This document shows positions 11,865 to 27,030 of a stretch of DNA of 64,000 nt, piece after piece. Both the position numbers and the translations under genes were made by a program. The stretch lies in contig OZ242221.1 of the NCBI GenBank assembly GCA_965206845.1, forward strand, positions 800,001 to 864,000, written 5' to 3'. Within the stretch, counting starts at the first letter, position 1; the number at the start of each line of letters is the position of its first letter. The notes under the pieces are model-generated. The model was not told the origin of the DNA. It was given only the letters and a program-made list of their open reading frames with translations, and searched no databases. This DNA is from Cenarchaeum sp. GTDB lineage: Archaea > Thermoproteota > Nitrososphaeria > Nitrososphaerales > Nitrosopumilaceae.

Positions 11865-13246
11865 GCGTCAAGGGAGGGGTCCAGTACAGCAAGATCGCCG
11901 AGATCAAGGGGCCGCTGGTAATAGTAGACGATGTGGAGAACGCCGCCTTTGACGAGCTGGTGGAGATCGAGACAACCGAAGGCCAGAAGAGGCTGGGCAA
12001 AGTACTCGAGGTCGGAAATGGCAAAGCCGTAGTGCAGGTCTTTGAGGGAACCACGGGACTGTCCATCTCAGGCACCAACGCAAAGTTTGTCGGCAAGGTA
12101 ATGGAGATGCCCGTCTCCCGTGAGGTGCTGGGCAGGGTCTTTGACGGACTTGGCAGACCAAAGGACAACCTGCCGGATCCGATTGCAGACAAGTTCGTAG
12201 ATATCAACGGCGAGCCCATGAACCCGGAGCAGAGAGAGTACCCCAAGGACTTTATCCAGACCGGCGTCTCTGTCATAGACGGCATGATCACCCTGGTTCG
12301 CGGCCAGAAGCTTCCCATCTTCTCCGGCTCCGGAATGTCACACAACATACTGGCAGCCCAGATAGCAAGACAGGCATCAGTAGTCGGCACCAAGGATGAC
12401 TTTGCGGTAGTCTTTGCGGCCATCGGCGTGCAGTACAGCGAGGCCGAGTACTTTAGGAAGAGCCTGGAGGAATCAGGTGCCCTGAAGAGAAGCGTGCTGT
12501 TCTTGAATCTGGCCGACGATCCCGCCATCGAGAGAATAATCACGCCCAGGGTGGCGCTGACGGTGGCCGAGTACCTGGCCTTTGATCTTGGAATACATGT
12601 CCTCGTCATACTTACCGATATGACAAACTACGCAGAGGCGCTAAGGGAGATCAGTGCTGCCCGTGAGGAGGTGCCTGGAAGAAAGGGCTATCCGGGCTAT
12701 CTGTACACCGACCTCTCCACCGTATACGAGAGGGCAGGCAAGCTGGTGGGAAGAAAGGGAAGCGTGACCCAGGTGCCCATTCTATCCATGCCGTCTGACG
12801 ACATTACGCACCCGATACCGGATCTTACCGGCTATATCACCGAGGGCCAGATAGTCCTGGGCAGGGATCTCTTCAGGCAGGGCATATACCCACCGGTAAA
12901 CATCCTGATGAGCCTCAGCAGGCTGATGAAGGACGGGATCGGCAAGGGCAGAACCCGGGAGGATCACGGCGAGATCTCCAATCAGAATTACGACGCATAC
13001 TCAAGAGCCCAGGAGGTGAGGGCCCTGGCAGGAATCGTGGGAAAGGCAGGACTGACCGACATAGACCTCAAGTACATGAATGTCGGAGACGGATTCGAGA
13101 AGAGCTTCCTCTCACAGGCAACAGACGAGAACCGAACCATCGAGGAGACGCTCAAGATACTGTGGGGCATAGTCTCCAAGCTGCCCAAGAACGAGATCAC
13201 CAAGGTAAAAGACAAGTACATAGAGCAGTACTACGGGAAAAGTTAG
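11861..13246 (+). CDS. atpB: A/V-type ATP synthase subunit B
   Basis: [49 protein letters not shown]. Confidence 0.99.
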
Positions 13247-13250
13247 CCTC

Positions 13251-13886
13251 ATGTCTTTTGGACAGAATGTAGCTGCGACAAAGATCGAGCTCCTAAAGTA
13301 CAAGCGCTCAAGCCAGGTGGCCACCATGGTCCAGAAGATCCTCGACGACAAGCGCAAGGTGCTCCTGAAGAACATCGAGGAGATGATAGAGGAGGCCTCA
13401 AAGGCCAGGGGCGGAATCTGGGATCCGCTGCAGGACATCTACAGATCCGTCAGCGAGGCGTACCTGCTACTGGGAACATCCACCGTCGACTCGGTGGCCC
13501 AGATGACGCCCGCGGTGATGGAGGTGGATGTAAGCATAAAGAGGGTGGTGGATGTCAAGATACCGGCGCTCAACGTTACAGAGAAGGACACAAAGGCCAT
13601 GCCCTACGGATTTGCCGACACAAACTCGTCAATAGACAGGGCGGCAAGGCAGATCAAGGTGCTGCTGCCGCGAATATGCAAGGCAGCCGAGTACGAGAAC
13701 TCGATATTCAGTCTGGCAAAGGCCCTGGAGAAGACCCAAAAGCTCCTCAACGCTCTGGAGAATGTGATCATACCGCAGTACCACCAGAGAATCAAGTTTA
13801 TTCTTGCCACCCTGGAGGAGAGGGAGCGGGAGGAATTCGTAAAACTAAAAAAAGTCAAGGCTGCAATGGAGAAGAGGAAGCAATGA
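13251..13886 (+). CDS. atpD: A/V-type ATP synthase subunit D
   Basis: TK.EL..K..LDDKR..L and T..LNALENVIIP..LEEREREEF..LKKVK. Confidence 0.96.
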   Translation: MSFGQNVAATKIELLKYKRSSQVATMVQKILDDKRKVLLKNIEEMIEEASKARGGIWDPLQDIYRSVSEAYLLLGTSTVDSVAQMTPAVMEVDVSIKRVVDVKIPALNVTEKDTKAMPYGFADTNSSIDRAARQIKVLLPRICKAAEYENSIFSLAKALEKTQKLLNALENVIIPQYHQRIKFILATLEEREREEFVKLKKVKAAMEKRKQ

Positions 13887-14014
13887 CAAAAAAAAGCATC
13901 AAGAAACTGGTGGATGGCTCAAAGTCGTCTCTGAGTGAGAGTTTTGACAAATTCTCAAAGAACGTAGGGAAAGATCTGGCAGGCATCAAAAAGAAGACCC
14001 TGAAGAGCATCTGA
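13883..14014 (+). CDS. 43-aa Lys-rich helical protein coupled to atpD
   Basis: ATG overlaps the atpD stop (ATGA). MTKKSIKKLVDGSKSSLSESFDKFSKNVGKDLAGIKKKTLKSI. Confidence 0.6.
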   Translation: MTKKSIKKLVDGSKSSLSESFDKFSKNVGKDLAGIKKKTLKSI

Positions 14015-14257
14015 AGGCGTCTGCAGATCCTAGCTCTGCCCGGAGTGTTGTAGGATGCAGATCGCAGCACCCGGATGGTTCTGGCAGCAGGCCAGCTATA
14101 GCAGAGCCTTGGGATAGCGGCAGGCCCCCCACCGATCCATGGGTACGGCGGGGACTTGTGCAAAGCAGGGCGCAAAGGCCCGCATGGGCGCACATGTTCC
14201 CGTGCCGGGACTTGTTATCATGATTTAAATATGGAATTTGAAGAGCAAGAATCGATA

Positions 14258-14563
14258 ATGAAGACTATCACGCTGGCACTACTGGCTGCAGCAGTAATCA
14301 GCATCTCAAGTGTTACCGGCATGGCGTACGCACAAGAAGGCGCGCAGGGCAGCTCCGATTCACTGAGGTTGGTTGGAGCCGGCCTTGCATTTGGTCTTGC
14401 GGCAGGTGGTGCAGGCATCGGCTTGGGTCATGTAGGGGCAGCCGGCCTTGCAGTCATAAGTGAGAACCCCGCGCTACAGTCAAAAGTATTCATATTCGTG
14501 GGCATGGTAGAGTCAATCGCCATCTACGGCATAGTAATGATGTTCATCATTCTGGGCCAATAA
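14258..14563 (+). CDS. atpK: A/V-type ATP synthase proteolipid subunit K (c), with N-terminal signal-like extension
   Basis: GAGLAFGLAAGGAGIG and ion-binding Glu in MVESIAIYG. Confidence 0.95.
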   Translation: MKTITLALLAAAVISISSVTGMAYAQEGAQGSSDSLRLVGAGLAFGLAAGGAGIGLGHVGAAGLAVISENPALQSKVFIFVGMVESIAIYGIVMMFIILGQ

Positions 14564-14583
14564 GCCACACACGATCTTTATTT

Positions 14584-15045
14584 TTAATTATATTCCAGCT
14601 GGCTTACGTCCAGCGTGCGTCGGCAGTACCTGCACTTGAGGATCACACCCTCCCTGTCCACCACATCCATCACGGATTCGATGTGCTCCCGGCTGTTTGT
14701 GATGCAGCCAGGGTTCGAGCACCGGAATATGCGGCCTATCTCGTTTGGCAGCGATACCCTGCGCTTCTCCACAAGCTTGTAGTTCTTGATGATGTTGACC
14801 GTGGCCGAGGGCGCGATTATCGCAAGCTTGTTGGTGTCGTCGCCTTGGAGAAACATGTTCTCGACCTTTATGATGTCCTTCTTTTTGAACTTCCCGCTGG
14901 GCACGTTGAGCGCAACGGTGATCAGGCTGCCGTCCAGGCCGTCAACGCCCAGCGCGTCCAGTACCTGAAGGCCCCTGCTCGCATCTATGTGATCGATCAC
15001 GGTACCATCGCGAATCCTCCTGACTATCAGCTCCGACTCCTGCAT
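14584..15045 (-). CDS. pyrI: Aspartate carbamoyltransferase regulatory chain
   Basis: IRDGTVIDHI, KKDIIKVE, CSNPGCITN and CRYC Zn ligands. Start could be 15051. Confidence 0.97.
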   Translation of the reverse strand: MQESELIVRRIRDGTVIDHIDASRGLQVLDALGVDGLDGSLITVALNVPSGKFKKKDIIKVENMFLQGDDTNKLAIIAPSATVNIIKNYKLVEKRRVSLPNEIGRIFRCSNPGCITNSREHIESVMDVVDREGVILKCRYCRRTLDVSQLEYN

Positions 15046-15086
15046 CAGCATAATTTGTATATTGTACTGGTATATATCCATGGGAT

Positions 15087-16016
15087 ATGGAGGAGTTTTT
15101 TCAGGAGGACGTGATCTCGATCCGGGACATGGACAGTGAAAAGCTGGAGAGGATCTTTGGTGCCACCGAGAAGATCCTGCGGATGCCGCCGGACTCGCGC
15201 CGGAAGATTACCCTGGGAAGGACACTGGGCTACCTGTTCTTTGAGCCAAGCACTAGGACGCGGCTGAGCTTTCAGGCCGCAATGGCAGCCACCGGCGGCA
15301 CGTCCCTGGGAATCGCCGATGTGACGTCATCGTCTACCCAGAAGGGCGAGAGCCTCGCAGATACGGTGAAGATCATGTCCATCTACTCTGATGTCCTCGT
15401 CCTGCGGCATCCAAGTGACGGCTCCAGCAGGTTTGCCGCCGAGGTCTCAGACAAGCCGGTCATAAACGGGGGAAGCGGCACCGAAGAGCACCCCACCCAG
15501 GCAATCCAGGATCTGTTTACCATCAAGAGGGAGAAGGGCAAGATCGACGGGCTGAACATCGGCATAGTGGGAGATCTCAAGTACGGAAGGACGGTCTACT
15601 CGCTGCTGTACGGGTTGGGAAACTATGACGTCAAGGTGCATCTGATATCCCCAGATTCGCTGCGAATCCGCTCCGACTCTGTCTATGAGATCAAAAAGCG
15701 GCTCTCGTTTACCGAGTCTGCCAGCCTGGAGGACGTGATCGACGATCTTGATGTGGTGTACGTTACAAGAATACAGAAGGAGCGGTTTCCCGACGAGGAG
15801 GAGTACCTCAAGGTCAGGGGGAGCTATGTGATCGGCCTAGACATGGTGAAGAGGATGAAGAGCGGTGCCATAATCATGCACCCGCTGCCTAGGCTTGATG
15901 AGATCTCCGCAGACATCGACCGCTCCCGGAACGCCAAGTACTTCAAGCAGGCAGAGTACGGCAAGTACACCAGGGCCGCCCTGCTGGGGCTGATCCTAAA
16001 CAAGAACGGCTTTTAG
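15087..16016 (+). CDS. pyrB: Aspartate carbamoyltransferase catalytic chain
   Basis: FFEPSTRTRLSF, HPTQ, GDLKYGRTV, RIQKER, MHPLP. Confidence 0.98.
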   Translation: MEEFFQEDVISIRDMDSEKLERIFGATEKILRMPPDSRRKITLGRTLGYLFFEPSTRTRLSFQAAMAATGGTSLGIADVTSSSTQKGESLADTVKIMSIYSDVLVLRHPSDGSSRFAAEVSDKPVINGGSGTEEHPTQAIQDLFTIKREKGKIDGLNIGIVGDLKYGRTVYSLLYGLGNYDVKVHLISPDSLRIRSDSVYEIKKRLSFTESASLEDVIDDLDVVYVTRIQKERFPDEEEYLKVRGSYVIGLDMVKRMKSGAIIMHPLPRLDEISADIDRSRNAKYFKQAEYGKYTRAALLGLILNKNGF

Positions 16017-16086: not shown

Positions 16087-16800
16087 TTAGGTGATAAACA
16101 TCCTCGAGTCCATCTTTTCGTGCCTCATCTGGCATATGTCAAGGTGTGGTGAGAACTGCCAGATCTCAGATGCCGGAACGTCCATGCTCTCTCGAATTGC
16201 CCCGATGACTTCTGGCTTGAGCTCGTGGATGATCTCCTGCCCCTCAAGGTGCTGGATTACCCCCAGGCGCAGCGCGGCCCCCACCACGCTGACGACGAAG
16301 CCATAAAGAAACGAGAGTGCGGCCCTCTCCCGGTCTATTCCCAAGGCATGCGAGCACACCCCAAACGCGACAGGGTACGTGCACGGGGTGGAGCCGCCCC
16401 TGACGGCCTCAAGGAACTCTGACAGAACGCCATCCCCGGCAAACCGGTGCACGGTCTTTGACAGCTGGGTGCCCGAGCTGCACGATACCTCCCTGGCCTC
16501 CCTGACCGCCTTTATGGCAAACACCGTCTCGTCCACCTCCAGAATCGACTCCAGGTCGTGCCTTTCCGCAAGGCCGACCACGTTTGCCAGCGCAACGCAG
16601 TCACAGGGACCGAGCTGCTGCGCGATCTGGGCCGAGATGAACTCCACCAGGTCCTCCTTTGAGACCGGCCCCTCCACAAGCAGCGTCTCAAGACCGCTGG
16701 ATGTGGAGTACAGGCCGGTGGGGAAGAAGGAATCAGATACCTGAAGCACTCCAAGATCCCGGAGCATCTCGTCTGCCTTCATACACACATACTCTGGCAT
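16087..16800 (-). CDS. ureF: Urease accessory protein UreF
   Basis: LQVSDSFFPTG.Y..S.GLE, S.VGAALRL..I...GQ and C-terminal MRHE....RMFIT. Start approximate. Confidence 0.9.
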   Translation of the reverse strand: MPEYVCMKADEMLRDLGVLQVSDSFFPTGLYSTSSGLETLLVEGPVSKEDLVEFISAQIAQQLGPCDCVALANVVGLAERHDLESILEVDETVFAIKAVREAREVSCSSGTQLSKTVHRFAGDGVLSEFLEAVRGGSTPCTYPVAFGVCSHALGIDRERAALSFLYGFVVSVVGAALRLGVIQHLEGQEIIHELKPEVIGAIRESMDVPASEIWQFSPHLDICQMRHEKMDSRMFIT

Positions 16801-16855
16801 TGGGCTCAAAAACCTTGTCCCGGACCGTCCCAGGCGGCCTGATTCGTGCACACCA

Positions 16856-18535
16856 TCAGTAGTAGTGGTGCATCTGCCGCTGCTCCAGCCCCTCCTGCTC
16901 CCAGTGGTTGTGGTTTCTTCCGGGCTCCTTGTGGGCGTGAACGGTCCCATCGATGTGGCAGTGCGTATTGTCGATCAGATCCTTCACAAAGACGTCATCC
17001 ACGTTCAGGATCATGTTGGCTGCCTCGACGGCAGTCTTGACAACCTGCTGCTTTACGGCCAGCGACTCGACCACGGTGCCGGCCACGTCGTCCAGCTCCC
17101 TGGTGCCTGCGTTTACGCCGTACCAGCAGCCGTTGCCGGCTACCGCATACATTGATCTCATCGCGGGCAGCGCATCAAGCGCGCTCATCCCCAGATTGCG
17201 CGCAAGCGTCATCGGAATCTCTTCCAAGGCGTCGGCGAACCGCTCTACCACCACCTGCTCCTTTCCCTCCAGGCATGGGGCCCGCTCCCTGATCTTTTTT
17301 GCCATGATCGCCTCGCAGGATCCGCCTCCATACACTATGAACGGGGACTCGATAAAGTTTCGGAGCACGCAGATGGCATTCAGGGCGGTGCGGTGGAACT
17401 CGTCCAGATGGCGCTTGGAGCCTGCCCGCAGGAGGATCGTAACCGATCCTGGATCTTCGGACTCGACAAACACCATCCTGTCGCCGCCGACGCTCTCCTC
17501 GTGGACCCTGCCTGCGAATCCCAGCTCGCCACCAGAGATGCCCTCAACGCTCCTGCAGACCTTGGCTCCGGTCGACTTTTCCAGCCACCACAGATCATTG
17601 TACTTGGCCCTGCGAACAGACATGATCCCCTCCCGCGCGAGGCGCTCTTGGGCCAGCCCGCTGATCCCCTTTCTTGACACCACCAGTCCGGCCCCGGAGT
17701 CAACGACCTTTTTGACGGTCGCAAGGACGTCGAGATCCTCCTGTGTGGCAAACCGGCCCATCTGCTCTGGGGATGTTATCTCGATCTCAGACTCGGCCTT
17801 GGTTCGCATCGTCTCAAGCGGGTCGTTTAGCAGGAGGACCTTCACGTTGCCGACGGTGCGCGGCATCTCCGGGTTGTCTGCCGGCTTGTCGATCACCGTT
17901 CCCCTCACCAGCCGAATGTCGGCAGGATCTCCTGGCTTCTCCTCGATCTTTATGTCGTCCGTATTGACCGTCCCGCGCTCAAGATCGGCTACCTGGCATA
18001 CCGCGTCGATGAACACGTCTGCCATACGGCCGTCGGGCAGAGCATCAAACAGCGCCTTACCCTCAAGGCATGAGACTGCAAGGCTGCGCATCATCGCCCT
18101 GTCCCCGGCATCGGCCTCGATCCTGATCTCGTCCAGTGCCTCCAGCGCGTATTTCATGCCCTCCTCAAAACCCCTTGTGATAACCGCGGTTGGAAACCCC
18201 CTGCCGAGCAGCTCCTTTGACTGCCTGAGCATGGCGCCCATCAGAACCGCGACCGAGATGGTGCCGTCGCCAACGTGCGTGTCCACGGTGTTGACCGCAT
18301 CCACCACCGCCTTTGCAGCAGGATGGTCAACGTCCAGCTTTCGCAGGAATGCCCCCCCGTGCTTTGTTACGGTCGCCTCGCCAAGTATGTCTATGTACAC
18401 CTTCTCCATCCCCCGCGGTCCCAGCGAGGTCTTGATCACGTCCGTTACGAGTATGCCGGCGACCACATTGTACGTCTGCGAGTCACGTCTTCCGATGCGG
18501 GAGAGGTCGGGGTTGAATATATCCGGATATTTCAT
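16856..18535 (-). CDS. Divergent group II chaperonin (thermosome-like) with a His/Cys-rich C-terminal tail
   Basis: TSLGPRGMEK, VGDGT, YGGGSCE, FADALEEIP..LARN.G, then tail THCHIDGTVHAHKEPGRNHNH..HHYY. Confidence 0.9.
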   Translation of the reverse strand: MKYPDIFNPDLSRIGRRDSQTYNVVAGILVTDVIKTSLGPRGMEKVYIDILGEATVTKHGGAFLRKLDVDHPAAKAVVDAVNTVDTHVGDGTISVAVLMGAMLRQSKELLGRGFPTAVITRGFEEGMKYALEALDEIRIEADAGDRAMMRSLAVSCLEGKALFDALPDGRMADVFIDAVCQVADLERGTVNTDDIKIEEKPGDPADIRLVRGTVIDKPADNPEMPRTVGNVKVLLLNDPLETMRTKAESEIEITSPEQMGRFATQEDLDVLATVKKVVDSGAGLVVSRKGISGLAQERLAREGIMSVRRAKYNDLWWLEKSTGAKVCRSVEGISGGELGFAGRVHEESVGGDRMVFVESEDPGSVTILLRAGSKRHLDEFHRTALNAICVLRNFIESPFIVYGGGSCEAIMAKKIRERAPCLEGKEQVVVERFADALEEIPMTLARNLGMSALDALPAMRSMYAVAGNGCWYGVNAGTRELDDVAGTVVESLAVKQQVVKTAVEAANMILNVDDVFVKDLIDNTHCHIDGTVHAHKEPGRNHNHWEQEGLEQRQMHHYY

Positions 18536-18708
18536 TCCGTCTGTCGAGTCTGAAAAATATTAAACCTTGCTGAAACCGGCTTCTTTGTCTGGGTATGACC
18601 CTGCGTACCGGGGCGCGTCTTTGCGCCCAGCACGGCAGGCCGCCCCGCATGCAGGCTCATCGCCGAACCCGTACGAATGGACTATCTTTGGTGGGTGGAG
18701 GCATGTGG

Positions 18709-20304
18709 TCACTTGCCGGCCAGGGTTTTCTTGCCCGGGGCATCGTCACCCGGACCGCTGGATCCCGTTCCGCTGCCGCCCATTATCGAGTCCCCCTCCT
18801 GGAAGTGTCTCAGATCTTCTCCCTCGATAACATCCTCTTCTGGGGGGATGTAATCCCTGACATCGTGCCGGGCCTTTCCTGGGTACCGGCTCTGGGTCGC
18901 AAGAGCCACGGCGATAAACAGGATGAAGGACACGATAGGCGGTATGAAGGTATCAAGACCAGCCAGATCTTCTGGGAACGAGAAGAAGAAGTACAGCCGG
19001 AGAAATGAACCCACAAGAAGGGAGGCAATTGCGGCGGGCATGTTCGCCTTCTTCCAGAACAGGCCGAATGTAAGGGGGGCAAGCGCGCCGGCAAATACGA
19101 TATCAAACGCCAGGATAAGGTAGATTCCGGGCGCCGGGGCAAAGTAGCCCAGGGCCGTTCCGGCAATCATCATGGGTATGAGCGCTATGCGCGTCATGAC
19201 AAGAAGCTTCTTGTCGTTCATCGTGGCCTTGCCGAGCCACCTCCTGCGAATTATCCTGCTGATCAGGTTCCTCGACACCACGCTGGAGATTGCCAGCAGT
19301 CCCCCGCTGGCAGTCGACATTGACGCGCCTATGATGCCCATCAGTATGCCTGCCCCAATGGCAAAGGGCAGGTGCCCCGTAACCAGCAGCGGAAGCGCGA
19401 GGTTGGGCGCGGTGTCCGGGGCCAGGTAGTGGTACGCTATGATTCCCATCATCGTGGTTGGCACCACCGTGAACATCGTCAGCAGTCCGCCCATCAGAGC
19501 TCCCCTCTGCGCAGTCTTGGGGTTCTTGGCTGCAAACACCCTCTCCATAAAGTCCAGCGCTATGATATCGCCCAATCCCAGCGCCAACAGGCCGGCCCAG
19601 TTAATCAGTGCACCGTTGGCTACATCAAACAGCCCGGACAGATCAAGAAACTCCGGCGGGGCGCTACTGTAGATCACATTCCACGGGGCGTCGGCAAATC
19701 CTCCGGCAAAGAACAGAAATCCGGCCCAGAATGCACCTATTGCAAGGTAGACCTGGAACAGGTTGGTGTATGCAGACGCAAACAGCCCGCCGGTCATGGT
19801 ATAAGCCACCACGACCAGCGCCGTGATCAGTATACCCCAGAAGTAGTCTATTCCAAAGACGGTCTCCAGAATAAAACCGCTTGCCGCCAGGTTGCCTGCG
19901 ACCAGAATGATAAAGCTGATTATCATCAAAACTCCGGAGATTCCCTCCGCGCCGTTGCCGAACCTTCTAAAGTAAAAATCTGGCAGGGTAATCATCGACA
20001 TCTTATTGAGCGGTTTTCCGTAGAATGCGGCCACGACCAGCAGGCACATCCCCAGGCCGATTGGCGTTATCGCGCCCGCCCAGAACCCGAACTCAAAGAC
20101 GAGGGCCGCATTGCCCAGGGTGGAGTTTCCGTCAACGGCCTGCGCGGCAAGCATCGTCCCGACCAGCGCCAGCGGCAGGCTCTTCCCTGCAACGATCAGC
20201 CTCTTTCCGCTGCCCCGCACCAGCTTGCCGGCAAAAATTCCAACGATAAGAGTGACTGCTATGAACACTGCTATCGCTATTCCAAAATCACCAAACTCGG
20301 CCAT
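18709..20304 (-). CDS. Sodium:solute symporter (SSS/SLC5-like), substrate unknown
   Basis: About 13 TM segments, AGKSLP, TLPDFY.RRFG, YT.TGG..A..YT, RVFAAK, GASMST. Confidence 0.92.
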   Translation of the reverse strand: MAEFGDFGIAIAVFIAVTLIVGIFAGKLVRGSGKRLIVAGKSLPLALVGTMLAAQAVDGNSTLGNAALVFEFGFWAGAITPIGLGMCLLVVAAFYGKPLNKMSMITLPDFYFRRFGNGAEGISGVLMIISFIILVAGNLAASGFILETVFGIDYFWGILITALVVVAYTMTGGLFASAYTNLFQVYLAIGAFWAGFLFFAGGFADAPWNVIYSSAPPEFLDLSGLFDVANGALINWAGLLALGLGDIIALDFMERVFAAKNPKTAQRGALMGGLLTMFTVVPTTMMGIIAYHYLAPDTAPNLALPLLVTGHLPFAIGAGILMGIIGASMSTASGGLLAISSVVSRNLISRIIRRRWLGKATMNDKKLLVMTRIALIPMMIAGTALGYFAPAPGIYLILAFDIVFAGALAPLTFGLFWKKANMPAAIASLLVGSFLRLYFFFSFPEDLAGLDTFIPPIVSFILFIAVALATQSRYPGKARHDVRDYIPPEEDVIEGEDLRHFQEGDSIMGGSGTGSSGPGDDAPGKKTLAGK

Positions 20305-20691
20305 TTAACAACTAGTAATTAGTCAACAGGTTATTTAAATATTGAAAAATTGCAGTAAAGTACGTTTTAGCGAACAAAAAATTAAACGTATACTACAATT
20401 ACCAATAAAAATTGGACGCATGCCACAATTATGGTAAAAGTTGTGCGCCAGCATCCCGCGGAGACGACGCCGGGCACGGGCCGCCGGCATGCCGTCCCCG
20501 CAGGCGGCCGCTACCGCCTTACCCCGACTCGCGCCGGCGCCGTACGTCCGTACCGCACGGGTTCGCCTGTCACATCGGACCGGTCGCAGGTATTTTTCCG
20601 GATGTGCCGTTTCGTGCCCGAATGAAGTGAGGTGTAATGTCACACCTTGCGCCTCCCCACAAGATTAATAGCTACGGCGACAAACCCATGC

Positions 20692-20862
20692 ATGGATAAG
20701 CAGTTTGGCCTCGCGGCTCTTCTGGTTCTTGTGGGATTTGGGATTACACAGCTGGAGCAGGACGGCGACGGCTCATTTCTAGTGGGCATTGGCATAGGGA
20801 CGATTGTGATCGCATCGTTCTGGATTGTGCTGAGGATAATCAAGGATTTAAAGAGAAAGTAG
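20692..20862 (+). CDS. Small 2-TM hypothetical membrane protein
   Basis: MDKQFGLAALLVLVGFGITQL..FLVGIGIGTIVIASFWIVLRIIKDLKRK. Confidence 0.6.
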   Translation: MDKQFGLAALLVLVGFGITQLEQDGDGSFLVGIGIGTIVIASFWIVLRIIKDLKRK

Positions 20863-21023
20863 TCTTTGCGGCAGGGCCGCGGCGTGATCTGTCGTTGCGC
20901 ACGCACCAGCTGCCTGTCGCCACGCCAAAAGGAAACCCACAATGCAGTCTGGGAAACTGCACGGCTCGGAGAGTGCGCGCGCCGCTACAAAATATTAAAA
21001 GCAAGCCAAACATATTCAGTATT

Positions 21024-21545
21024 GTGCCTGGCAAGGGATACGCAACCATAGGCCTGAAACCCGGCACCTATACCCGCCTGCAGAGCATCACGGATGCGTT
21101 CTATCCAGGAATGTTTCTGCCCAGTACCCTGATAATGTTGATGAACGAGGTAAAGCTGGGGCGCTATTCCATTGAATCCCACAGGATGAAGATTGACACG
21201 GCCGGGAGATACTACACCATGACCATAAGGGCAGATGTGAAGGACTGGCTGAGGGAGAAGTATGATCTGCATGGGAAGGAGTACGGGACAAGATACAAAA
21301 CCAAATGCTTTTCAAACTTCGTGAGCTACTTTCTGGTGAATCTGTTTGAATCCAAGCTGAACTCGCAGAATAACGTAATCAGGCTCAAGGAGTCCGACTT
21401 TGAGTGGCTCCAGAGGGAGTATGCCGTGTATAAGAAGGACACCAAGGACAGGCGCGAGGTACAGACGTTTGAAAAGTTTGCGGACTCGCACATCAACAAG
21501 ATCTTTGAAAAGATCAGAACCGCCAAGGAGATACTGACCATATGA
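21024..21545 (+). CDS. Hypothetical protein, possibly tandem ribbon-helix-helix-like DNA-binding
   Basis: Likely GTG start. Three strand+helix+helix units begin YATIGLK, YYTMTIR and VIRLK. Confidence 0.6.
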   Translation: MPGKGYATIGLKPGTYTRLQSITDAFYPGMFLPSTLIMLMNEVKLGRYSIESHRMKIDTAGRYYTMTIRADVKDWLREKYDLHGKEYGTRYKTKCFSNFVSYFLVNLFESKLNSQNNVIRLKESDFEWLQREYAVYKKDTKDRREVQTFEKFADSHINKIFEKIRTAKEILTI

Positions 21546-21569
21546 GCACGCAAGCGGTTTAAAAAAAAA

Positions 21570-21827
21570 TTAGAGGGGCACCATTGTGTCAATCAGCCTT
21601 GCGTTGGTGACCTGTCCGTCCTTTTCCTGAATCTCAAGATCCACCGTATACTTGAGGCCGTCAAGCATGAAGTTTACCTGCACGTCCCATGCTTCTCTTG
21701 TTCCTTTCTCCGGTATCGGGAACGTTGTGTTTACACGAAAGTCAGATACCTCACCATACAGGGAACCGATTACACGGCTTGACTCCCTGGCTATGTCTTC
21801 TGATGTACTAACCTGCACCATACTCAT
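21570..21827 (-). CDS. Small acidic hypothetical protein
   Basis: 85-aa ORF with protein-like composition (WDVQVNF..YTVDLEI..DGQV). Confidence 0.7.
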   Translation of the reverse strand: MSMVQVSTSEDIARESSRVIGSLYGEVSDFRVNTTFPIPEKGTREAWDVQVNFMLDGLKYTVDLEIQEKDGQVTNARLIDTMVPL

Positions 21828-21927
21828 TAACCTAAAGGACGTAGGATATAAGAATTATGTAGTGCCAGAGGGAAGAAAGTGTTACCATATTGCAACATTT
21901 AGTGGTAAACTACGAATTATTTTGGGA

Positions 21928-23310
21928 TCAGTTTCCAAAAGATCTTCCAAACTTTTTGAAGAACGACTCTTTGTTCTCGCCGTCTATCTTCTCCATGACC
22001 TGGCTTTTGTAGTAGATCGCCCGCTGGTTTTCAGGATCCAGCTTGAGCGCCCTGCTGTAGCACTCCAGGGACTCCTCGTATCTGCCAAGTGACATCAGAA
22101 GCTTTCCCTTGTAGCTGATGGCGTACACATAGTCAGGTGCTATGGACAGTGCCTTGTCGCAGTATGTCAACGCCTCGTCATACTTTTTTTGGTGCTCGAG
22201 AAGCCAGACCATGCTGCACAGCGCCCTGACATTGTCAGGCTCGATGCTCAGCGCAGCCTCGCAGAAGAATCTTGCCGCGCCGTATTTTTTTAGCGAGAAC
22301 AGGGAGACTCCCTTGCTGTACATGGCGCGAACGTTCCCCGGATCACTCTTCAGTATTCTGTCAAAGCAGTCAACGGCCTTTTTGAACATCCCCGTCCTGT
22401 CATACACCAAGCCCTTGTTCAGCAGGGCATCGGCATTCTCAGGATCAACCTCAAGCGCCTTGTCAAAGAAGTAAAAGACATCCTTGTATGAAAACCCCGC
22501 CAGATCCAGGGTCCAGCCCTTTGCCACCAGCGCCCGGACGTTCTTCGAGTCCAGCTTTAGGGCCCTGGTATAGTACCGCATGGCCTCTTCATGCCTGCTC
22601 TGCTGTGTTAGCTTTGCACCCTTTTCGTAGAGATCCTGCGACTGCCCCGACTCCGCCTCTATTGCCTTGTCCAGATAGAATGACGAGTCTGACTGCCTTC
22701 CCATTCTTCCAAGGACCAGGCTCTTGTTGTAGAGCGCATCAGGGTTCGTGCCCTCGATCTTCAGAACCTGGTCAAGCAGATCTATTGCCTCCCCGTGCAT
22801 CTTCAGGTTGCTCTTGCAGAGGGCCATGTATGTCAGCGCGCCCAGGTGCCTGCTGTCGATCTCAACGACCCGTAGAAAGCTGGATACTGCGTCATCATAC
22901 CTGCCGATCTTTTCCTGTGCCAAGCCCAAGTTGTACAGTGCATCTGTGTGCTTTGGGTCAGTCACAGCGACGTCCTCAAAGCACTGGGCGGCACTAACAA
23001 ACTCGTTTATCTGGTACAGCGCCTGTCCCTTGTGAAACTGTGCCAGCGCGTTCCCCGGATCCTCCTCCAGCGCCCTGTTGAAGCTTGAGACTGCCTTCTT
23101 GAACTCGCCGTAACTCTTCCAGTACAGACCGTTGGAGACAAAGTCCTGCTTGGCCTTGGGCTTGATAAAATGCATGGCGTAACTGTGCGGTTCAAGTTTA
23201 TAATTAGTTCTATGCCGTTTGACCGGATTTCGCAGATACGGGAGCGGCACTCCCGGATCCGTGAGGGGCGCTCGTTTCAGGAGTCCCCGCACCCAATCCA
23301 GCGCGCCCAA
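21928..23310 (-). CDS. Tetratricopeptide repeat protein
   Basis: About 11 34-aa repeats of type AL..KG..L...G.Y.EA...FD.AL..DP. Confidence 0.95.
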   Translation of the reverse strand: MGALDWVRGLLKRAPLTDPGVPLPYLRNPVKRHRTNYKLEPHSYAMHFIKPKAKQDFVSNGLYWKSYGEFKKAVSSFNRALEEDPGNALAQFHKGQALYQINEFVSAAQCFEDVAVTDPKHTDALYNLGLAQEKIGRYDDAVSSFLRVVEIDSRHLGALTYMALCKSNLKMHGEAIDLLDQVLKIEGTNPDALYNKSLVLGRMGRQSDSSFYLDKAIEAESGQSQDLYEKGAKLTQQSRHEEAMRYYTRALKLDSKNVRALVAKGWTLDLAGFSYKDVFYFFDKALEVDPENADALLNKGLVYDRTGMFKKAVDCFDRILKSDPGNVRAMYSKGVSLFSLKKYGAARFFCEAALSIEPDNVRALCSMVWLLEHQKKYDEALTYCDKALSIAPDYVYAISYKGKLLMSLGRYEESLECYSRALKLDPENQRAIYYKSQVMEKIDGENKESFFKKFGRSFGN

Positions 23311-23367
23311 AAACGTATTTTACCAAAAATGTTTATTATCTGACATTCCGCAGAGACAGTGATCGTA

Positions 23368-24483
23368 ATGGGCATGGAGTTTTACGGCGATGACTACAGG
23401 GGTGCGGATGTTGCCCCCTTTGTTGGAATAAACACCTTCCTGCATCTGCCATGGGTGAAAACCCATGAAGAGCTGGTAAACGCAAGGCCCGACGTCGCCA
23501 TCATCGGCGAACCGTTTGACTTTGGCACCACCATCCGCCCCGGGGCAAGATACGGCCCGCGGGCCCTGAGGGCCGCGTCCACAATACCGTCTCCGCCCTA
23601 TGAGAGGTTTAACATCGAGACGGGGGCCGATCCCTTTGGCACGTTTAGAACCGTCGATTATGGGGATGTCCACGTGTCCCCCGGTGACGTGATCGAGTCC
23701 CACAAGAGAATGTCCCAGAAGGTAAAGGAGGTTCTCGAACAGGACGGAATTCCGGTGATGCTTGGAGGCGATCACTCGATCACCTATGCCAACGTACGCG
23801 CATTTGCCAAAAAGTACAAGAACATAGGCATGATTCATTTTGACACGCACGCAGACTGCGCCCCGCAGGGGCTGACAGGCTACAAGTATGATCACGGGGC
23901 ACACATTCGAAGAATAATGGAGATGGGATGCATGAAGGGAAGGAACTACTCCCTTGTGGGACCGCGCGGCTACTGGCCAGGACCGGATCTGTACAAGTGG
24001 ATGTCAGACCAAGACTTCCAGTGGTTCACAATGCTGGACGTTGAAGAGCTGGGAATCGACTACATTGCCAAGGAGATAGCAGACAGGGCAAACGACGGCA
24101 CCGACGCGGTGTACCTCTCTTGGGATATCGACTCGTTTGATCCCGCCTACGCCCCCGGAACAGGGGAGCCGGAGCCAAACGGCCTCACGTCCAGGGAGGG
24201 CATAAGAATGGTTCGCCTGCTCTCAAAGTCCTTTGACCCCGACAGGTTCGCAATGGATCTGGTCGAGGTGGCGCCGGCATACGATGTAAGCGACAACAGC
24301 TCGTACAACGGCGGGATTACGTCCGGACTGGGACAGAGACTGATCGTGGAACTCCTGGCGGGCCTGTCGTTGACAAAGAGGGGCCTAGACGAGGGGAGCC
24401 CGGTAAGGCCACATGATTACCGTGGAACCGGCAACACTTACAGCTTTGGCAGCCCTCGTGCGGAGATCCCCAGGAGATCTTGA
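23368..24483 (+). CDS. Ureohydrolase (agmatinase/guanidinobutyrase family)
   Basis: RPGARYGP, GGDHS, DTHAD, SWDIDSFDP..APGTG.PEP, DLVEV.P. Confidence 0.95.
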   Translation: MGMEFYGDDYRGADVAPFVGINTFLHLPWVKTHEELVNARPDVAIIGEPFDFGTTIRPGARYGPRALRAASTIPSPPYERFNIETGADPFGTFRTVDYGDVHVSPGDVIESHKRMSQKVKEVLEQDGIPVMLGGDHSITYANVRAFAKKYKNIGMIHFDTHADCAPQGLTGYKYDHGAHIRRIMEMGCMKGRNYSLVGPRGYWPGPDLYKWMSDQDFQWFTMLDVEELGIDYIAKEIADRANDGTDAVYLSWDIDSFDPAYAPGTGEPEPNGLTSREGIRMVRLLSKSFDPDRFAMDLVEVAPAYDVSDNSSYNGGITSGLGQRLIVELLAGLSLTKRGLDEGSPVRPHDYRGTGNTYSFGSPRAEIPRRS

Positions 24484-24842
24484 TGTTAGTCAAGATAACT
24501 GCGCAAGAAGAGCCATACAGACCAATTGTAACAACGTTTCAGTTCCAGAATGACGTGCTTGCCGCGTCGGCAGACAGGGTCAAGAGCAAGCTGAGACGGA
24601 ATATGCGGATCAACCTGAACGAGACCCTGCTGCTGTTTACCGAGCACATTGCGCACATGCTAAGGGAGGGCAAGGGCTACGATCAGATCAAAAGGGAGAT
24701 ATCCGGGATCCTCTCCTCCGACCAGGTGATGCCCGGAACGCCCGAGATGCTGCGCAGGCTGGACTTTGAGATTCTGTCGGATCACAAGACGGAGATAACG
24801 GTGAACCAGCCGATTGCCATTCCTGATGCCGCAAGGATGTGA
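24483..24842 (+). CDS. Divergent urease gamma-subunit-like protein
   Basis: K..R...IN.NE......REGK......L...QVMPG.PEM......TV.QPI matches the UreA pattern. Lacks MxLTPRE. TGATG coupling to the ureohydrolase. Confidence 0.75.
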   Translation: MLVKITAQEEPYRPIVTTFQFQNDVLAASADRVKSKLRRNMRINLNETLLLFTEHIAHMLREGKGYDQIKREISGILSSDQVMPGTPEMLRRLDFEILSDHKTEITVNQPIAIPDAARM

Positions 24843-24848
24843 GCGCTT

Positions 24849-25589
24849 GTGGTTCTGGAGGAGATGCTTGTAGGGCTTGACGGCGGAGCTCCGGTTCTGT
24901 TGCTCTCTGCCGGCCTGATGATCGGGCTGTTTCATGCCTTTGAGCCGGATCACGTGACTGCGGTGACCACGCAGATGGCCAAAATGAGGAGGGGCACGGC
25001 GCTGCCCGAGATAAGAAGGAATGCCGTAAAGAGCTGCCTGCTTGGCGCGTTCTGGGGGTTTGGCCACACCTCGATGATTCTTCTTGTAAGTGTTCTGATA
25101 CTCGTCTTCTCCCTGAGCATACCGGGTCAGGTGTTTGACGGATTCGAGTTTGTGGTGGGCGCGATGCTGGTCATACTGGGGCTGTCCGTTTACACGAAGA
25201 GGGGCATAACCAGGCCGAGGCATTCGCACCCGCACATCCACGGGGACGGCACGACCCACTCGCACCCGCACAGCCACGGTACTGGCCACCTTCATGGCCA
25301 CAAATCGTATCTCATCGGCTGCGTTCACGGCATTGCAGGGAGCGGGGGCATAGTCGCACTCAGCGCCCCCATGCTTGGCGACATCCAGGCCGTCCTGGCA
25401 TTTGTTCTGGTCTTCGGCGCCGGCTCGATCGTCGGGATGATGGTGGCAAGCGGGGCGCTGAGCGTTCCGTTTGGCCTTGCCAGAAACTTTGAGAGGCTGC
25501 AGAAGATCACGAGGCTTGCGACAGGCACGGTAAGCATCATCATAGGGATCGGCATAATGTACAGCCTGCAAGCCCTGTTCGTCTTTTGA
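24849..25589 (+). CDS. UreH/NiCoT-like nickel/cobalt permease
   Basis: HAFEPDH (HX4DH), WGFGHT, His-rich loop HSHPHIH..HSHPHSH and G.VHG.AGSG. Confidence 0.88.
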   Translation: MVLEEMLVGLDGGAPVLLLSAGLMIGLFHAFEPDHVTAVTTQMAKMRRGTALPEIRRNAVKSCLLGAFWGFGHTSMILLVSVLILVFSLSIPGQVFDGFEFVVGAMLVILGLSVYTKRGITRPRHSHPHIHGDGTTHSHPHSHGTGHLHGHKSYLIGCVHGIAGSGGIVALSAPMLGDIQAVLAFVLVFGAGSIVGMMVASGALSVPFGLARNFERLQKITRLATGTVSIIIGIGIMYSLQALFVF

Positions 25590-25689: not shown

Positions 25690-27030
25690 GTGTACGTCAA
25701 GTTTATGATAGCTGCCATAGTTCTTGGGCTGGTTTCGGTCTCGGGAGCCTACGGGCACGGACTGGATCTTGACACCGTCCAGTCCGTAGACGTCGGCGGA
25801 AAGGATCTGACAATAACGGTGGAGATCTCACCCGAGTCCGGCGACAGGCAGATCACCGTTACCACCACCGAGGACTCGGGCCGCAGGGGCGCAGAGAACA
25901 TCACCCTTCTGATCCGCCTCTTCCACCAGGGACAGATGATACTCCAGGAGCAGTTCTTTGCGCATGACGGAGTGCTGCGGATAAACGCAGTGACGGCCGA
26001 CAGCGTGGAGATATCGGGGGAGCAGGATCCGCAGTCCGGCGTTTGGAGATCCGGGGCCGACCCGCTGACCATAACGGGACCGACCCTTGGCTCCGGGGGG
26101 CTGTACAGGTTTGAGATCGAGGTTGTGACGGCGGATGATCCGGCCCGCATTCTGGATGACCGCAGCGTCTACAGCGCCGATGTCAGCATACTGGAGACGG
26201 CATCCCACGCCCAGTCTGATCTCGGCGGCGGCGATGTGCAGTTTCGAACAAAGTCATACTTTGACACGCTGTCAGGGTTTGAGTACGATGCGCAGGCAGG
26301 CAGGGTCACAGTGGAGATGCCGTTTGACTGGAGCGAGAAGACCATATCCCACATACCGGTGGTCCACGTGGAGGTTCACATTCCAGACGGGTTTGCCGAG
26401 TTTCTGCATCCCGGCTACACGGGCAGGGTAAACGGAATCGACCTCTTTCGGGCGTCGGTGACCATCGACGACTACACGGAGGAGGATGAGCGCATAGTCC
26501 ACTTTGTGCTGCTTGGCGACCATGTCAAATCCCTGAAGACCCAGCAGAAGCAGGCAGGGCAGGAGATCCCCGACGTGATGACATTTACGCTGGACGCCAG
26601 CGACGAGACGCAGTTTCCCATGACCGCATACACCCGGGACGAGCAGTTTCGGGTGGACATCACGTGGGATCCTGTAGAGGTACAGTCAGAGGAACCCACG
26701 AACTTTGTATTTACTATCCGCGACGGCGCAACGGGCGAGCCGCTGCGGCAGTCCACGTACGGCTTTGTGATCCTGCAGGCAGGCAGCGAGATATACCGGA
26801 CCGGCGGCAACGCCGTGGTGGGCGGCTCGTTTGAGACCTACACCTTCTCCGAGGACCAGACTGGACAGACCACGATCCGGTTCGAGGACATACGCGGCAC
26901 CGGCGCGGTGACGGAGTTTGGTGTCGTGGTGGTGCCAGAGTTTGGCATCACGGCCATAATCCTGATTGCCGGCACCGCATCTGCCGTGCTCTCCGGACTG
27001 GCGGCAAGAAGCCTATTGATCCTCAAGTAG
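25690..27030 (+). CDS. Secreted PEFG-CTERM surface protein
   Basis: Signal peptide AYG|HGL and C-terminal VVPEFG + TM. Paralog of 33226..34866. Confidence 0.85.
   Translation: MYVKFMIAAIVLGLVSVSGAYGHGLDLDTVQSVDVGGKDLTITVEISPESGDRQITVTTTEDSGRRGAENITLLIRLFHQGQMILQEQFFAHDGVLRINAVTADSVEISGEQDPQSGVWRSGADPLTITGPTLGSGGLYRFEIEVVTADDPARILDDRSVYSADVSILETASHAQSDLGGGDVQFRTKSYFDTLSGFEYDAQAGRVTVEMPFDWSEKTISHIPVVHVEVHIPDGFAEFLHPGYTGRVNGIDLFRASVTIDDYTEEDERIVHFVLLGDHVKSLKTQQKQAGQEIPDVMTFTLDASDETQFPMTAYTRDEQFRVDITWDPVEVQSEEPTNFVFTIRDGATGEPLRQSTYGFVILQAGSEIYRTGGNAVVGGSFETYTFSEDQTGQTTIRFEDIRGTGAVTEFGVVVVPEFGITAIILIAGTASAVLSGLAARSLLILK

Follow-up and report, generated by a model that had tools for sequence, protein, structure and literature searches.

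We analysed a stretch of 64,000 nucleotides of the Cenarchaeum sp. genome (bases 800,001–864,000 of contig OZ242221.1; hereafter the window), a genome that consists of one 1.65-Mb contig of about 55% G+C. The window carries a group of genes arranged around an arginase-family ureohydrolase (UH) and adjoining the gene of the urease accessory protein UreF. Eight of them, namely ThsHis, SSS531, orf216, orf85, TPR460, UH, UreA-like and NiPerm, form a module that is conserved and co-inherited in ammonia-oxidising archaea (AOA). In positions of the window, the genes are as follows.

16087–16800, minus strand (open reading frame, ORF, open to 16950): UreF, urease accessory protein (PF01730, E 5e-36, 124.7 against 23.3 bits)
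16856–18535, minus strand: ThsHis, group II chaperonin (thermosome paralog) with a His-rich C-terminal tail (PF00118, E 8e-129, 430.9 bits)
18709–20304, minus strand: SSS531, sodium:solute symporter (SSS) of 531 aa (PF00474, E 3e-29, 102.8 against 22.8 bits)
21024–21545, plus strand: orf216, probable ribbon-helix-helix (RHH) protein, about 173 aa from a GTG start; orthologs start with MPGKGY
21570–21827, minus strand: orf85, protein of 85 aa, 68% mean column identity over 37 sequences
21928–23310, minus strand: TPR460, tetratricopeptide-repeat (TPR) protein, divergent from UH (TPR Pfam families)
23359–24483, plus strand: UH, arginase-family ureohydrolase (PF00491, E 8e-82, 275.3 bits against a cut-off of 22)
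24480–24842, plus strand: UreA-like, urease-gamma paralog (PF00547, 39.0 against 23.9 bits, model positions 16–99)
24849–25589, plus strand: NiPerm, permease of the six-transmembrane (TM) NicO/UreH kind with an HX4DH motif and a His-rich loop

The symporter, the chaperonin, UreF, the ureohydrolase, the urease-gamma homolog and the permease had been named in the original prediction, made from the sequence letters; all six are present, on the strands expected and within a few bases of where they had been placed. The idea of a unit built around the ureohydrolase stands as a conserved module, and three other parts of that interpretation do not, namely the repurposing of UreF, the independence from urease and the participation of the gamma paralog in Ni insertion. 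The stretch 20305–23358, which had been described as a small insert, holds three conserved genes (orf216, orf85 and TPR460), found with the same neighbours in two AOA families. As members of the module they lead us to reject an insert or mobile element at this place; the JAB and DUF7809 Pfam matches in the stretch are weak and below cut-off.

The comparison drew on a class-wide sample of 401 genomes, with neighbourhoods taken from two AOA families. A first set of 40 genomes from these families was selected by a match to UreA-like, the window proteins were aligned onto 20 kb of each, and genes were counted per 20-kb stretch. UH stands immediately upstream of the UreA-like paralog in all 40 loci, which were chosen by the UreA-like match, an arrangement well beyond chance. 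The same 20 kb hold SSS531 in 39 loci, orf85 in 36, orf216 in 35, ThsHis in 34, NiPerm in 29 and TPR460, beside UH, in 28. The second set, retrieved independently by means of UH, comprised 80 Nitrosopumilaceae loci, and the 46 of them with at least 9 kb on both sides contain orf85 in 46 cases, TPR460 in 45, SSS531 in 44, NiPerm in 43, orf216 in 41 and ThsHis in 40; TPR460 was not seen in most loci of family f3. NiPerm lies downstream of UH, on the same strand and within 1.3 kb, in 63 of 74 loci. UreA-like is missing from at least eight of the 74, and there NiPerm follows UH directly after a gap of 51–227 bp. UH, the urease-gamma paralog and the permease are a conserved and apparently co-transcribed unit, as had been supposed from the window.

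A panel of 30 complete or near-complete genomes was composed of five that carry UH, 15 that carry ureC without UH and ten negative for both. Orthologs of orf85, orf216, SSS531 and ThsHis were each found in 5/5, 0/15 and 0/10 of these genomes, respectively, and none of the four occurs in 20 urease loci of UH-negative genomes. In this panel the four genes track the ureohydrolase, not urease as such, and both the panel and the locus counts place the symporter and the His-tailed chaperonin in the same co-inherited set, in agreement with the original prediction.

Across the class, UH orthologs were found in 118 of 401 genomes (72–97% identity, E <1e-150, with no scores between 1e-60 and 1e-150) and ureC in 176. 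Both genes are present in 112 genomes, ureC alone in 64 and UH alone in six (G237, G338, G346, G380, G388 and G399). These six are fragmented assemblies of 60–380 contigs each, and the G237 contig stops inside ureB. The module is nested within urease-positive genomes, and urease is common without the module. The supposed independence of ureC is not upheld: UH is accompanied by ureC in 112 of its 118 genomes, the other six being the fragmented ones. In 15 of the 40 loci ureC lies inside the same 20 kb. The class-wide counts (181 in the UreA-like search, 118 for UH and 176 for ureC) include two unpublished genomes, G282 and G364, both positive for UH and ureC; no other claim depends on either of them. 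The carriers include Nitrosopumilus, Nitrosarchaeum, Nitrosotenuis, Nitrosopelagicus and Cenarchaeum metagenome-assembled genomes (MAGs). The possible link with host association raised from the window is not sustained, and the module was rejected as a host-association marker: a close relative appears in sponge RNA runs, yet many carrier lineages are free-living.

In a third family (f5; loci L185, L186 and L191 of G173, G191 and G265) we observed the compact order orf85, UH, (UreA-like), permease, ureA, ureB, ureC, in which the module and the urease structural genes resemble one operon-like block.

UH, with its full binuclear metal site, is the module's core enzyme. Its likely start is the ATG at 23368 (MGMEF). 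The motifs GGDH, DTHAD and DID align with H182, D207, H209, D211, D299 and D301 of the guanidinase 9fek, for which the ligand list is given in PMC11410670, and none of the six ligands (His, Asp, His, Asp, Asp, Asp) varies among 38 orthologs. These orthologs, from two families, have 88% mean column identity, a C-terminal extension of about 40 residues included. The best matches in the Protein Data Bank (PDB) are guanidinobutyrase 3nio (6e-51) and the Ni-dependent guanidinases 9fek and 7esr (about 1e-47), next come proclavaminate amidinohydrolase and guanidinopropionase, and then metformin hydrolase (E 1e-34). Both NCBIfam agmatinase cut-offs are missed (TIGR01230, 158.3 against 174.3 bits; PRK02190, 206.6 against 302). 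The genome has two arginase-family genes; the other one passes TIGR01230 (207.9 against 174.3 bits), matches the archaeal agmatinase 3pzl best among PDB entries and is 31% identical to UH. By these scores, matches and identity, UH is an extra paralog in the guanidinobutyrase/guanidinase branch and not the housekeeping agmatinase, in line with the guanidino-compound hydrolase originally proposed; its placement among ureohydrolases is based on E-values and three sequence positions.

The specificity residues set UH apart from the GdmH-type guanidinases. T58 of UH aligns with the Thr of the guanidinases, and the position of the guanidine-specific Trp is occupied by an invariant Glu (E270); the corresponding specificity residues are T97/W305 in Synechocystis and T105/W313 in N. 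inopinata (PMC11410670). Glu at this PGTG-x-PE position is found in 27 of 28 AOA-type homologs and in 50 of 57 haloarchaeal-type homologs (50–57% identical), and Thr in 29 of 35 more distant ones. On these residues UH belongs to a distinct, so far uncharacterised Glu-type subfamily. The acidic residue, together with the choline-transporter relatives of SSS531, offers faint hints of a cationic substrate. Two UH orthologs, at G400:C1:2086563-2087681 (L070) and G256:C80:7364-8473, contain one internal stop each (TAA and TAG) and could be either pseudogenes or products of sequencing errors.

The ATG of UreA-like at 24483 overlaps the UH stop as TGATG, and the translational coupling of ureohydrolase and urease-gamma homolog read from the window is borne out in the sequence. 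PDB urease gamma chains match UreA-like at E 7e-8. It stays under the NCBIfam UreA equivalog cut-offs (41.8 against 123 and 35.3 against 82.3 bits) and is 31% identical to the true UreA that is encoded with ureBC elsewhere in the genome. Used as a query on the 401 genomes, UreA-like recovers true UreA at about E 1e-6 to 1e-9, often with a better-scoring paralog 2–18 kb away. By an approximate count made by eye, matches at E ≤1e-10 occur in about 90 of the 118 UH-positive genomes, and UH-negative genomes have none better than 2.8e-10. The protein's sequence changes quickly (40% mean identity), with no His or Cys position invariant; because of this, and because UreA-like is missing from at least eight of the 74 loci, the role in Ni insertion once suggested for it is not indicated. 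Prediction of a complex of UH with UreA-like from 38-row alignments scored 0.00 in two runs, a result that carries no weight either way on binding.

ThsHis is the third thermosome of the genome and is 38–39% identical to the two housekeeping ones. It reaches the NF041082 cut-off (459.8 against 450 bits) and stays below that of TIGR02339 (453.5 against 671.1). Orthologs of at least 47% identity are confined to the five UH-positive genomes of the panel; the UH-negative panel genomes have housekeeping thermosomes (36–42%) and, in two other families, also a 26–27% identical chaperonin beside ureC. The tail is kept in all 33 full-length orthologs, with the pattern TH-C/T-H-x-DG-xx-H-x-H followed by more His and a terminal MHHYY. 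Since 64 urease-positive genomes do without ThsHis, its client is probably not urease. The tail (16859–16960) and the cytoplasmic loop of the permease (25210–25300) share an H-x-H-x-D-G-T-x-H-x-H-like pattern, which may be a common metal-binding or hand-over motif. Something alike is known from the GroES homolog HspA of H. pylori, whose His/Cys-rich C-terminus binds Ni and which serves Ni-enzyme maturation (PMC3856676); HspA, however, is a group I co-chaperonin and the only GroES of its cell, whereas ThsHis adds a further group II subunit to the cell, occurs only alongside UH and is predicted to bind metal.

The suspicion that chaperonins near AOA urease genes had already been reported proved right. 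In a hadal MAG, a further thermosome encoded close to a unique symporter and to urease genes has been described and read as pressure adaptation (PMC7265257); this thermosome and symporter are very probably ThsHis and SSS531. An Hsp60 homolog was reported from the urease loci of Nitrosocaldus and Nitrososphaerales and stated not to be found in Nitrosopumilales (PMC5797428). The passages concerned in these two papers do not mention the His tail, the ureohydrolase, the gamma paralog or the permease. The identification of ThsHis with the 'Hsp60 homolog' of Abby et al. 2018 was rejected, as ThsHis is only 26–27% identical to it and both are present in G243. A divergent Cpn60/TCP-1 protein, 25–27% identical to ThsHis, stands directly beside ureC in L093–L095 (G115, G119 and G183, of two other families), and the same type is encoded at G243:C1:2391919-2393355 in a genome that also has ThsHis; this divergent protein is probably the Hsp60 homolog of PMC5797428.

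Two further observations concern relatives of ThsHis. The UH-negative genome G207 contains at C1:333793-333984 (minus strand) a 64-aa remnant that is 70% identical to the His-rich tail end of ThsHis and adjoins a permease homolog at 332610–333299, which looks like a decayed module. On pNG700 of Haloarcula marismortui (L177 1-2803), about 6 kb from the UH-like gene, a Cpn60/TCP-1 chaperonin that is 25% identical to ThsHis and has a short His motif in its tail comes after a formamidase gene; this may be another amidase–chaperonin pairing.

SSS531 reaches no NCBIfam equivalog cut-off, and its nearest solved relatives are choline transporters (E 1.7e-25). It is 23% identical over 343 residues to SSS665, the DUR3-like symporter of the same genome. 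The DUR3-like protein is 74–86% conserved in the urease loci of UH-negative genomes and stands beside ureC in 16 of 20. SSS531 is presumed to import the substrate of UH and is distinct from the DUR3-like urea symporter. The 665-aa DUR3-like symporter itself is encoded by two 99% identical copies about 310 kb apart (G000:C1 308375-310369 and 620330-622324), apparently a recent duplication of a presumed urea transporter, and a 55% identical paralog at G000:C1 320266-322083 lies beside urease accessory genes.

The HX4DH motif is the signature of NiCoT/UreH permeases. In NiPerm it reads HAFEPDH, starts at residue 29 in the first TM region and is found in 29 of 29 orthologs, with H29, D34 and H35 invariant, and the loop has 11–15 His within 40 residues, ten of them invariant. 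The match to Pfam NicO (PF03824) is below cut-off (20.8 against 27.7 bits); 15 of 30 orthologs match it at E ≤0.01, the best at 1.1e-6, and the permease profile found nothing meaningful among PDB sequences. The cargo is presumed to be Ni2+ or Co2+.

The start of UreF is likely the ATG at 16800, which gives a protein of 237 aa whose gene begins 55 nt after the chaperonin stop. The original prediction had regarded UreF as a urease part repurposed for the ureohydrolase. It is the sole copy in the genome. UreF was seen in 14 of the 40 UH loci and in 19 of the 20 urease loci of UH-negative genomes, and in all 33 it stands beside UreG in the order UreF-UreG-UreD. The single copy and this constant position argue that the window UreF is an ordinary urease gene displaced by a lineage-specific rearrangement, that is, a scattered piece of a urease operon, which the prediction itself had named as an outcome that would speak against it. 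The sister genome G203, an assembly of about 150 contigs, has only a 22.5-bit UreF fragment between the permease and UreD and is uninformative here.

No ureB, ureC, ureD or ureG was detected in the window by tblastn, as had been noted from the sequence. The rest of the genome supplied ureABC, UreG and UreD at about 315–320 kb of the contig, some 500 kb from the window genes; UreF is missing there, and the ureE position holds a 164-aa ORF without a family match. This ORF lies between ureA and UreG (L003:11393-11887, minus strand; G000:C1 ~317395-317886), matches nothing in Pfam or NCBIfam, has counterparts (33–47% identity) in the corresponding position of many AOA urease loci and may be a divergent UreE. 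The genome yielded no HypA/HypB-type chaperone, and the only other UreG match is 29% identical.

Among the smaller proteins, the AlphaFold model of orf216 (pLDDT 85.5) shows an N-terminal strand-helix-helix, with TraY and DndE as best fold matches (weak, E 0.025); its nearest named clusters in the protein atlas are all RHH, which we take as a lead only, and orf216 is a candidate DNA-binding regulator of the module. The model of orf85 (pLDDT 87.7) has one helix and a four-stranded sheet in a cystatin/PepSY-like shape, again a lead only. Fold searches with both proteins against the PDB gave no match at E ≤0.001, and their atlas matches are AOA clusters without a family, apart from the weak PepSY and RHH leads.

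In four sponge metatranscriptome runs of one study, contigs 95–99% like the module stretch cover it. One of these contigs spans UH, UreA-like and part of NiPerm, and another crosses the junction of UreF and the thermosome. There is little or no cover just upstream of UH and in parts of 20.5–21.1 kb, although contigs cannot show transcript ends. The contigs hint, and no more, at expression of the module by a close relative in a sponge.

On both sides of the module the window contains other genes. Directly after the permease, at 25690–27030 on the plus strand, a 446-aa protein with a weak PEFG-CTERM sorting signal is encoded, with 25% identical paralogs in the window (33226–34209) and at other places of the genome; none of the related module loci showed it, and it is therefore not counted as a module gene. 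The genes upstream of UreF (11861–16016) look like housekeeping ones on a reading of their translations: two ORFs resemble A/V-type ATPase subunits, and 14584–15081 (minus strand) and 15087–16016 (plus strand) look like the regulatory and catalytic chains of aspartate carbamoyltransferase.

Relatives of UH outside the AOA extend the picture of its genomic partners. UH-like genes (50–52% identity) are carried by haloarchaeal megaplasmids, where an SSS531-like symporter stands beside them in two of the three contexts inspected and a complete urease operon in one of the three. In Halalkalicoccus jeotgali and Haloarcula marismortui the UH-like gene adjoins a symporter 36–37% identical to SSS531, and no urease gene was found in the 19 kb examined around these two pairs. 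In Natronorubrum bangense the UH-like gene is near a complete urease operon, with a PhoU-like regulator in between. Both the enzyme–symporter and the enzyme–urease pairing thus recur in another phylum.

The reading that we favour, and consider somewhat more probable than its negation, is that the module is an accessory set of the archaeal urea pathway, which comprises the import of a guanidino compound, its hydrolysis to urea and proteins for metal handling, and which feeds an ammonia oxidiser. In this scheme, SSS531 would import the guanidino compound and UH would split it into urea and an amine or acid. The ordinary urease, encoded elsewhere in the genome (ureABC with UreD, UreF and UreG), would then turn the urea into ammonia for oxidation and assimilation. 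UH would be loaded with Ni2+, possibly Co2+, brought in by the HX4DH permease. ThsHis would hand the metal over during folding, its conserved His-rich tail presumably lying within the chamber. UreA-like would be a dispensable partner, and orf216, the RHH-like protein, is the likely regulator of the module. What the comparison establishes is the gene content, its conservation and co-inheritance, the nesting in urease-positive genomes and the standing of UH as an extra paralog. The evidence for the module is strong and comparative; that for the substrate class and the metal is circumstantial.

There are precedents for Ni-dependent ureohydrolases encoded together with importers and Ni chaperones. 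The guanidinase GdmH of Synechocystis with GhaA/GhaB (7esr, 7oi1) and the comammox guanidinase (9fek) are, like UH, arginase-family enzymes; their six ligands align with those of UH (E about 1e-47), they release urea, and metal-handling genes adjoin the enzyme gene as they do in the UH module. In the nitrifier, the urea from the guanidinase passes to urease (PMC11410670), like the route proposed for UH. UH differs from GdmH in keeping the DHGAHIRR loop of guanidino-acid hydrolases. Its module has the His-tailed thermosome, the urease-gamma paralog and the HX4DH permease in place of HypA/HypB-like chaperones, and its importer is of the SSS type, whereas that of GdmH is of the APC or ABC type. 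Importer and Ni-chaperone genes adjoin both Ni-dependent enzymes, GdmH and metformin hydrolase (PMC11271267). Metformin hydrolase (MetCaCb/MfmAB; 8snf, 8x3g) is likewise an arginase-family enzyme, in one cluster with an importer, regulators and Ni-insertion proteins according to the same source. It is, however, a heteromer of active and inactive arginase-family subunits, whereas UH is single, and it has HypA/HypB-like accessories and a recent bacterial origin, whereas the UH module is common to two AOA families.

GbuA and GpuA of Pseudomonas aeruginosa (3nio, 3nip) are the nearest characterised enzymes on the guanidino-acid side. GbuA, the best solved match, is a catabolic enzyme that yields urea and shares with UH the fold, the ligands and a similar HG..RR loop, but it has Thr where UH has Glu (PGTG-x-PE), and the C-terminal extension distinguishes UH from it. 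The gbuA gene is not known to have a metal permease or chaperonin beside it. In AOA papers and databases the UH gene bears the label of the agmatinase SpeB, which belongs to the same Pfam family and has the same chemistry, although UH falls below the agmatinase cut-offs; relatives of UH are named 'agmatinase' or 'guanidinobutyrase' in the sources, and most AOA are reported to carry 2–3 speB copies (PMC10753782).

A number of observations weigh against the guanidino reading. All functional assignments, that is, transport, substrate class, metal, chaperonin client and the flow of urea to urease, rest on context. The strict nesting in urease-positive genomes and the frequent adjacency to ureABC would be equally expected of a module that supports urease. 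With Glu in place of the guanidine-specific Trp, UH is not a GdmH-type guanidinase, and according to PMC11410670 AOA have no genes for guanidine degradation. Ligand for ligand, the metal site of UH matches that of Mn enzymes, and sequence cannot separate Ni from Mn. Nor is the permease family confined to the module: homologs are present in 4/5 UH-positive, 4/15 ureC-positive UH-negative and 5/10 ureC-negative panel genomes, the UH-positive panel genome G243 has none, and 11 of the 40 loci lack a nearby permease. UreH-type permeases, usually read as Ni carriers, can also carry Co (PMC2667541). RNA libraries may contain DNA, so the sponge contigs are no proof of transcripts. In soil NS-delta MAGs, finally, an SSS clustered with an 'agmatinase SpeB' was read as a urea transporter with control of the urea level (PMC11131427).

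The last point belongs to an alternative that we regard as possible but on the whole doubtful, namely that the module supports urease. SSS531 would then be a second urea transporter, ThsHis would fold or metallate urease, the permease would feed Ni to it and UreA-like would be an alternative or regulatory gamma subunit, with UH as an internal agmatinase- or arginase-like enzyme whose by-product urea is recycled. The restriction of the module to urease-positive genomes and its frequent abutment on ureABC/ureFGD, seen in the 15 of 40 loci with ureC within 20 kb, fit this well. So do the true homology of UreA-like to a urease subunit and the position of UreF directly after ThsHis in this genome, and in the literature not only PMC11131427, with its urea transporter and urea-regulating SpeB, but also PMC5797428 leans this way, proposing that chaperonin stabilises urease in AOA urease loci. 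Urease does not need the module, however, as 64 of 176 urease-positive genomes are without the whole set. The genome has a separate agmatinase equivalog, the DUR3-like urea symporter shares only 23% identity with SSS531, and the chaperonin of soil-AOA urease loci is a different paralog (26–27%) that coexists with ThsHis in G243. The UH–SSS pair occurs on two haloarchaeal plasmids without a urease gene in 19 kb, and UH is the most conserved protein of the set (88% mean column identity, against 76–85% identity to UreC at the same loci). It is also conceivable, though unlikely, that the pathway is the right one and the metal an ordinary one: UH would be an Mn2+ enzyme like guanidinobutyrase, and the His-rich permease and tail would serve urease or Ni/Co homeostasis. 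The best solved relative, guanidinobutyrase 3nio, is an Mn enzyme with an identical ligand set, and the lack of a permease in those 11 loci and in the whole G243 genome, as well as the permease homologs in urease-negative genomes, agree with such a division. The order UH, (UreA-like), permease on one strand in 63 of 74 loci is hard to square with it, as are the His-tailed chaperonin that travels only with UH and the nine of 15 complete ureC-positive UH-negative genomes that have no permease homolog at all.

The full version of the original prediction, in which urease parts, namely UreF, UreA-like and the chaperonin, have been turned to a new use and jointly insert Ni into the ureohydrolase independently of urease, appears to us very improbable. 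UreF does lie 55 nt downstream of ThsHis on the same strand, and, with no HypA/HypB-type chaperone detected, the genome offers no known means of Ni insertion other than the urease accessory proteins. But UreF is present in one copy that the genome's own urease needs, its position in ureFGD in 33 of 33 other loci marks the window arrangement as a lineage-specific rearrangement, UreA-like is dispensable and lacks conserved metal ligands, and the module never occurs without urease in complete genomes. A bolder form of the guanidino reading, which we hold to be quite improbable, would make UH a Ni/Co enzyme with a new maturation route in which the ThsHis tails hold the metal in the cage, UreA-like docks UreD-UreF-UreG or urease on the ureohydrolase, and AOA with the module draw ammonia, and hence energy, from an unrecognised guanidino substrate. 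UreA-like as a docking adaptor would explain why the module never occurs without urease genes.

The literature searched gave no account of the eight-gene module as a whole, of the gamma paralog or of the His-rich tail, and no proposal that AOA use a guanidino substrate; its supplements may show more of the cluster (Figure S7 of PMC7265257, Figure S11 of PMC11131427 and the supplementary tables of PMC11410670). Published work, in the parts considered here, has noted single pieces and not the module.

AOA drive much of marine and soil nitrification, and their accepted organic sources of ammonia are urea and, rarely, cyanate. Growth of a nitrifier on guanidine was first shown in 2024 (PMC11410670). 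If the guanidino reading is true, the module, which is found in roughly three in ten of the sampled AOA genomes and is conserved, co-inherited and apparently expressed, would add a substrate class to archaeal nitrification and with it a further source of nitrogen and energy. Routine annotation, which now counts UH as a second or third 'speB' copy, would be corrected. The thermosome with its predicted metal-binding tail, in turn, may represent a new kind of metallocentre assembly factor.

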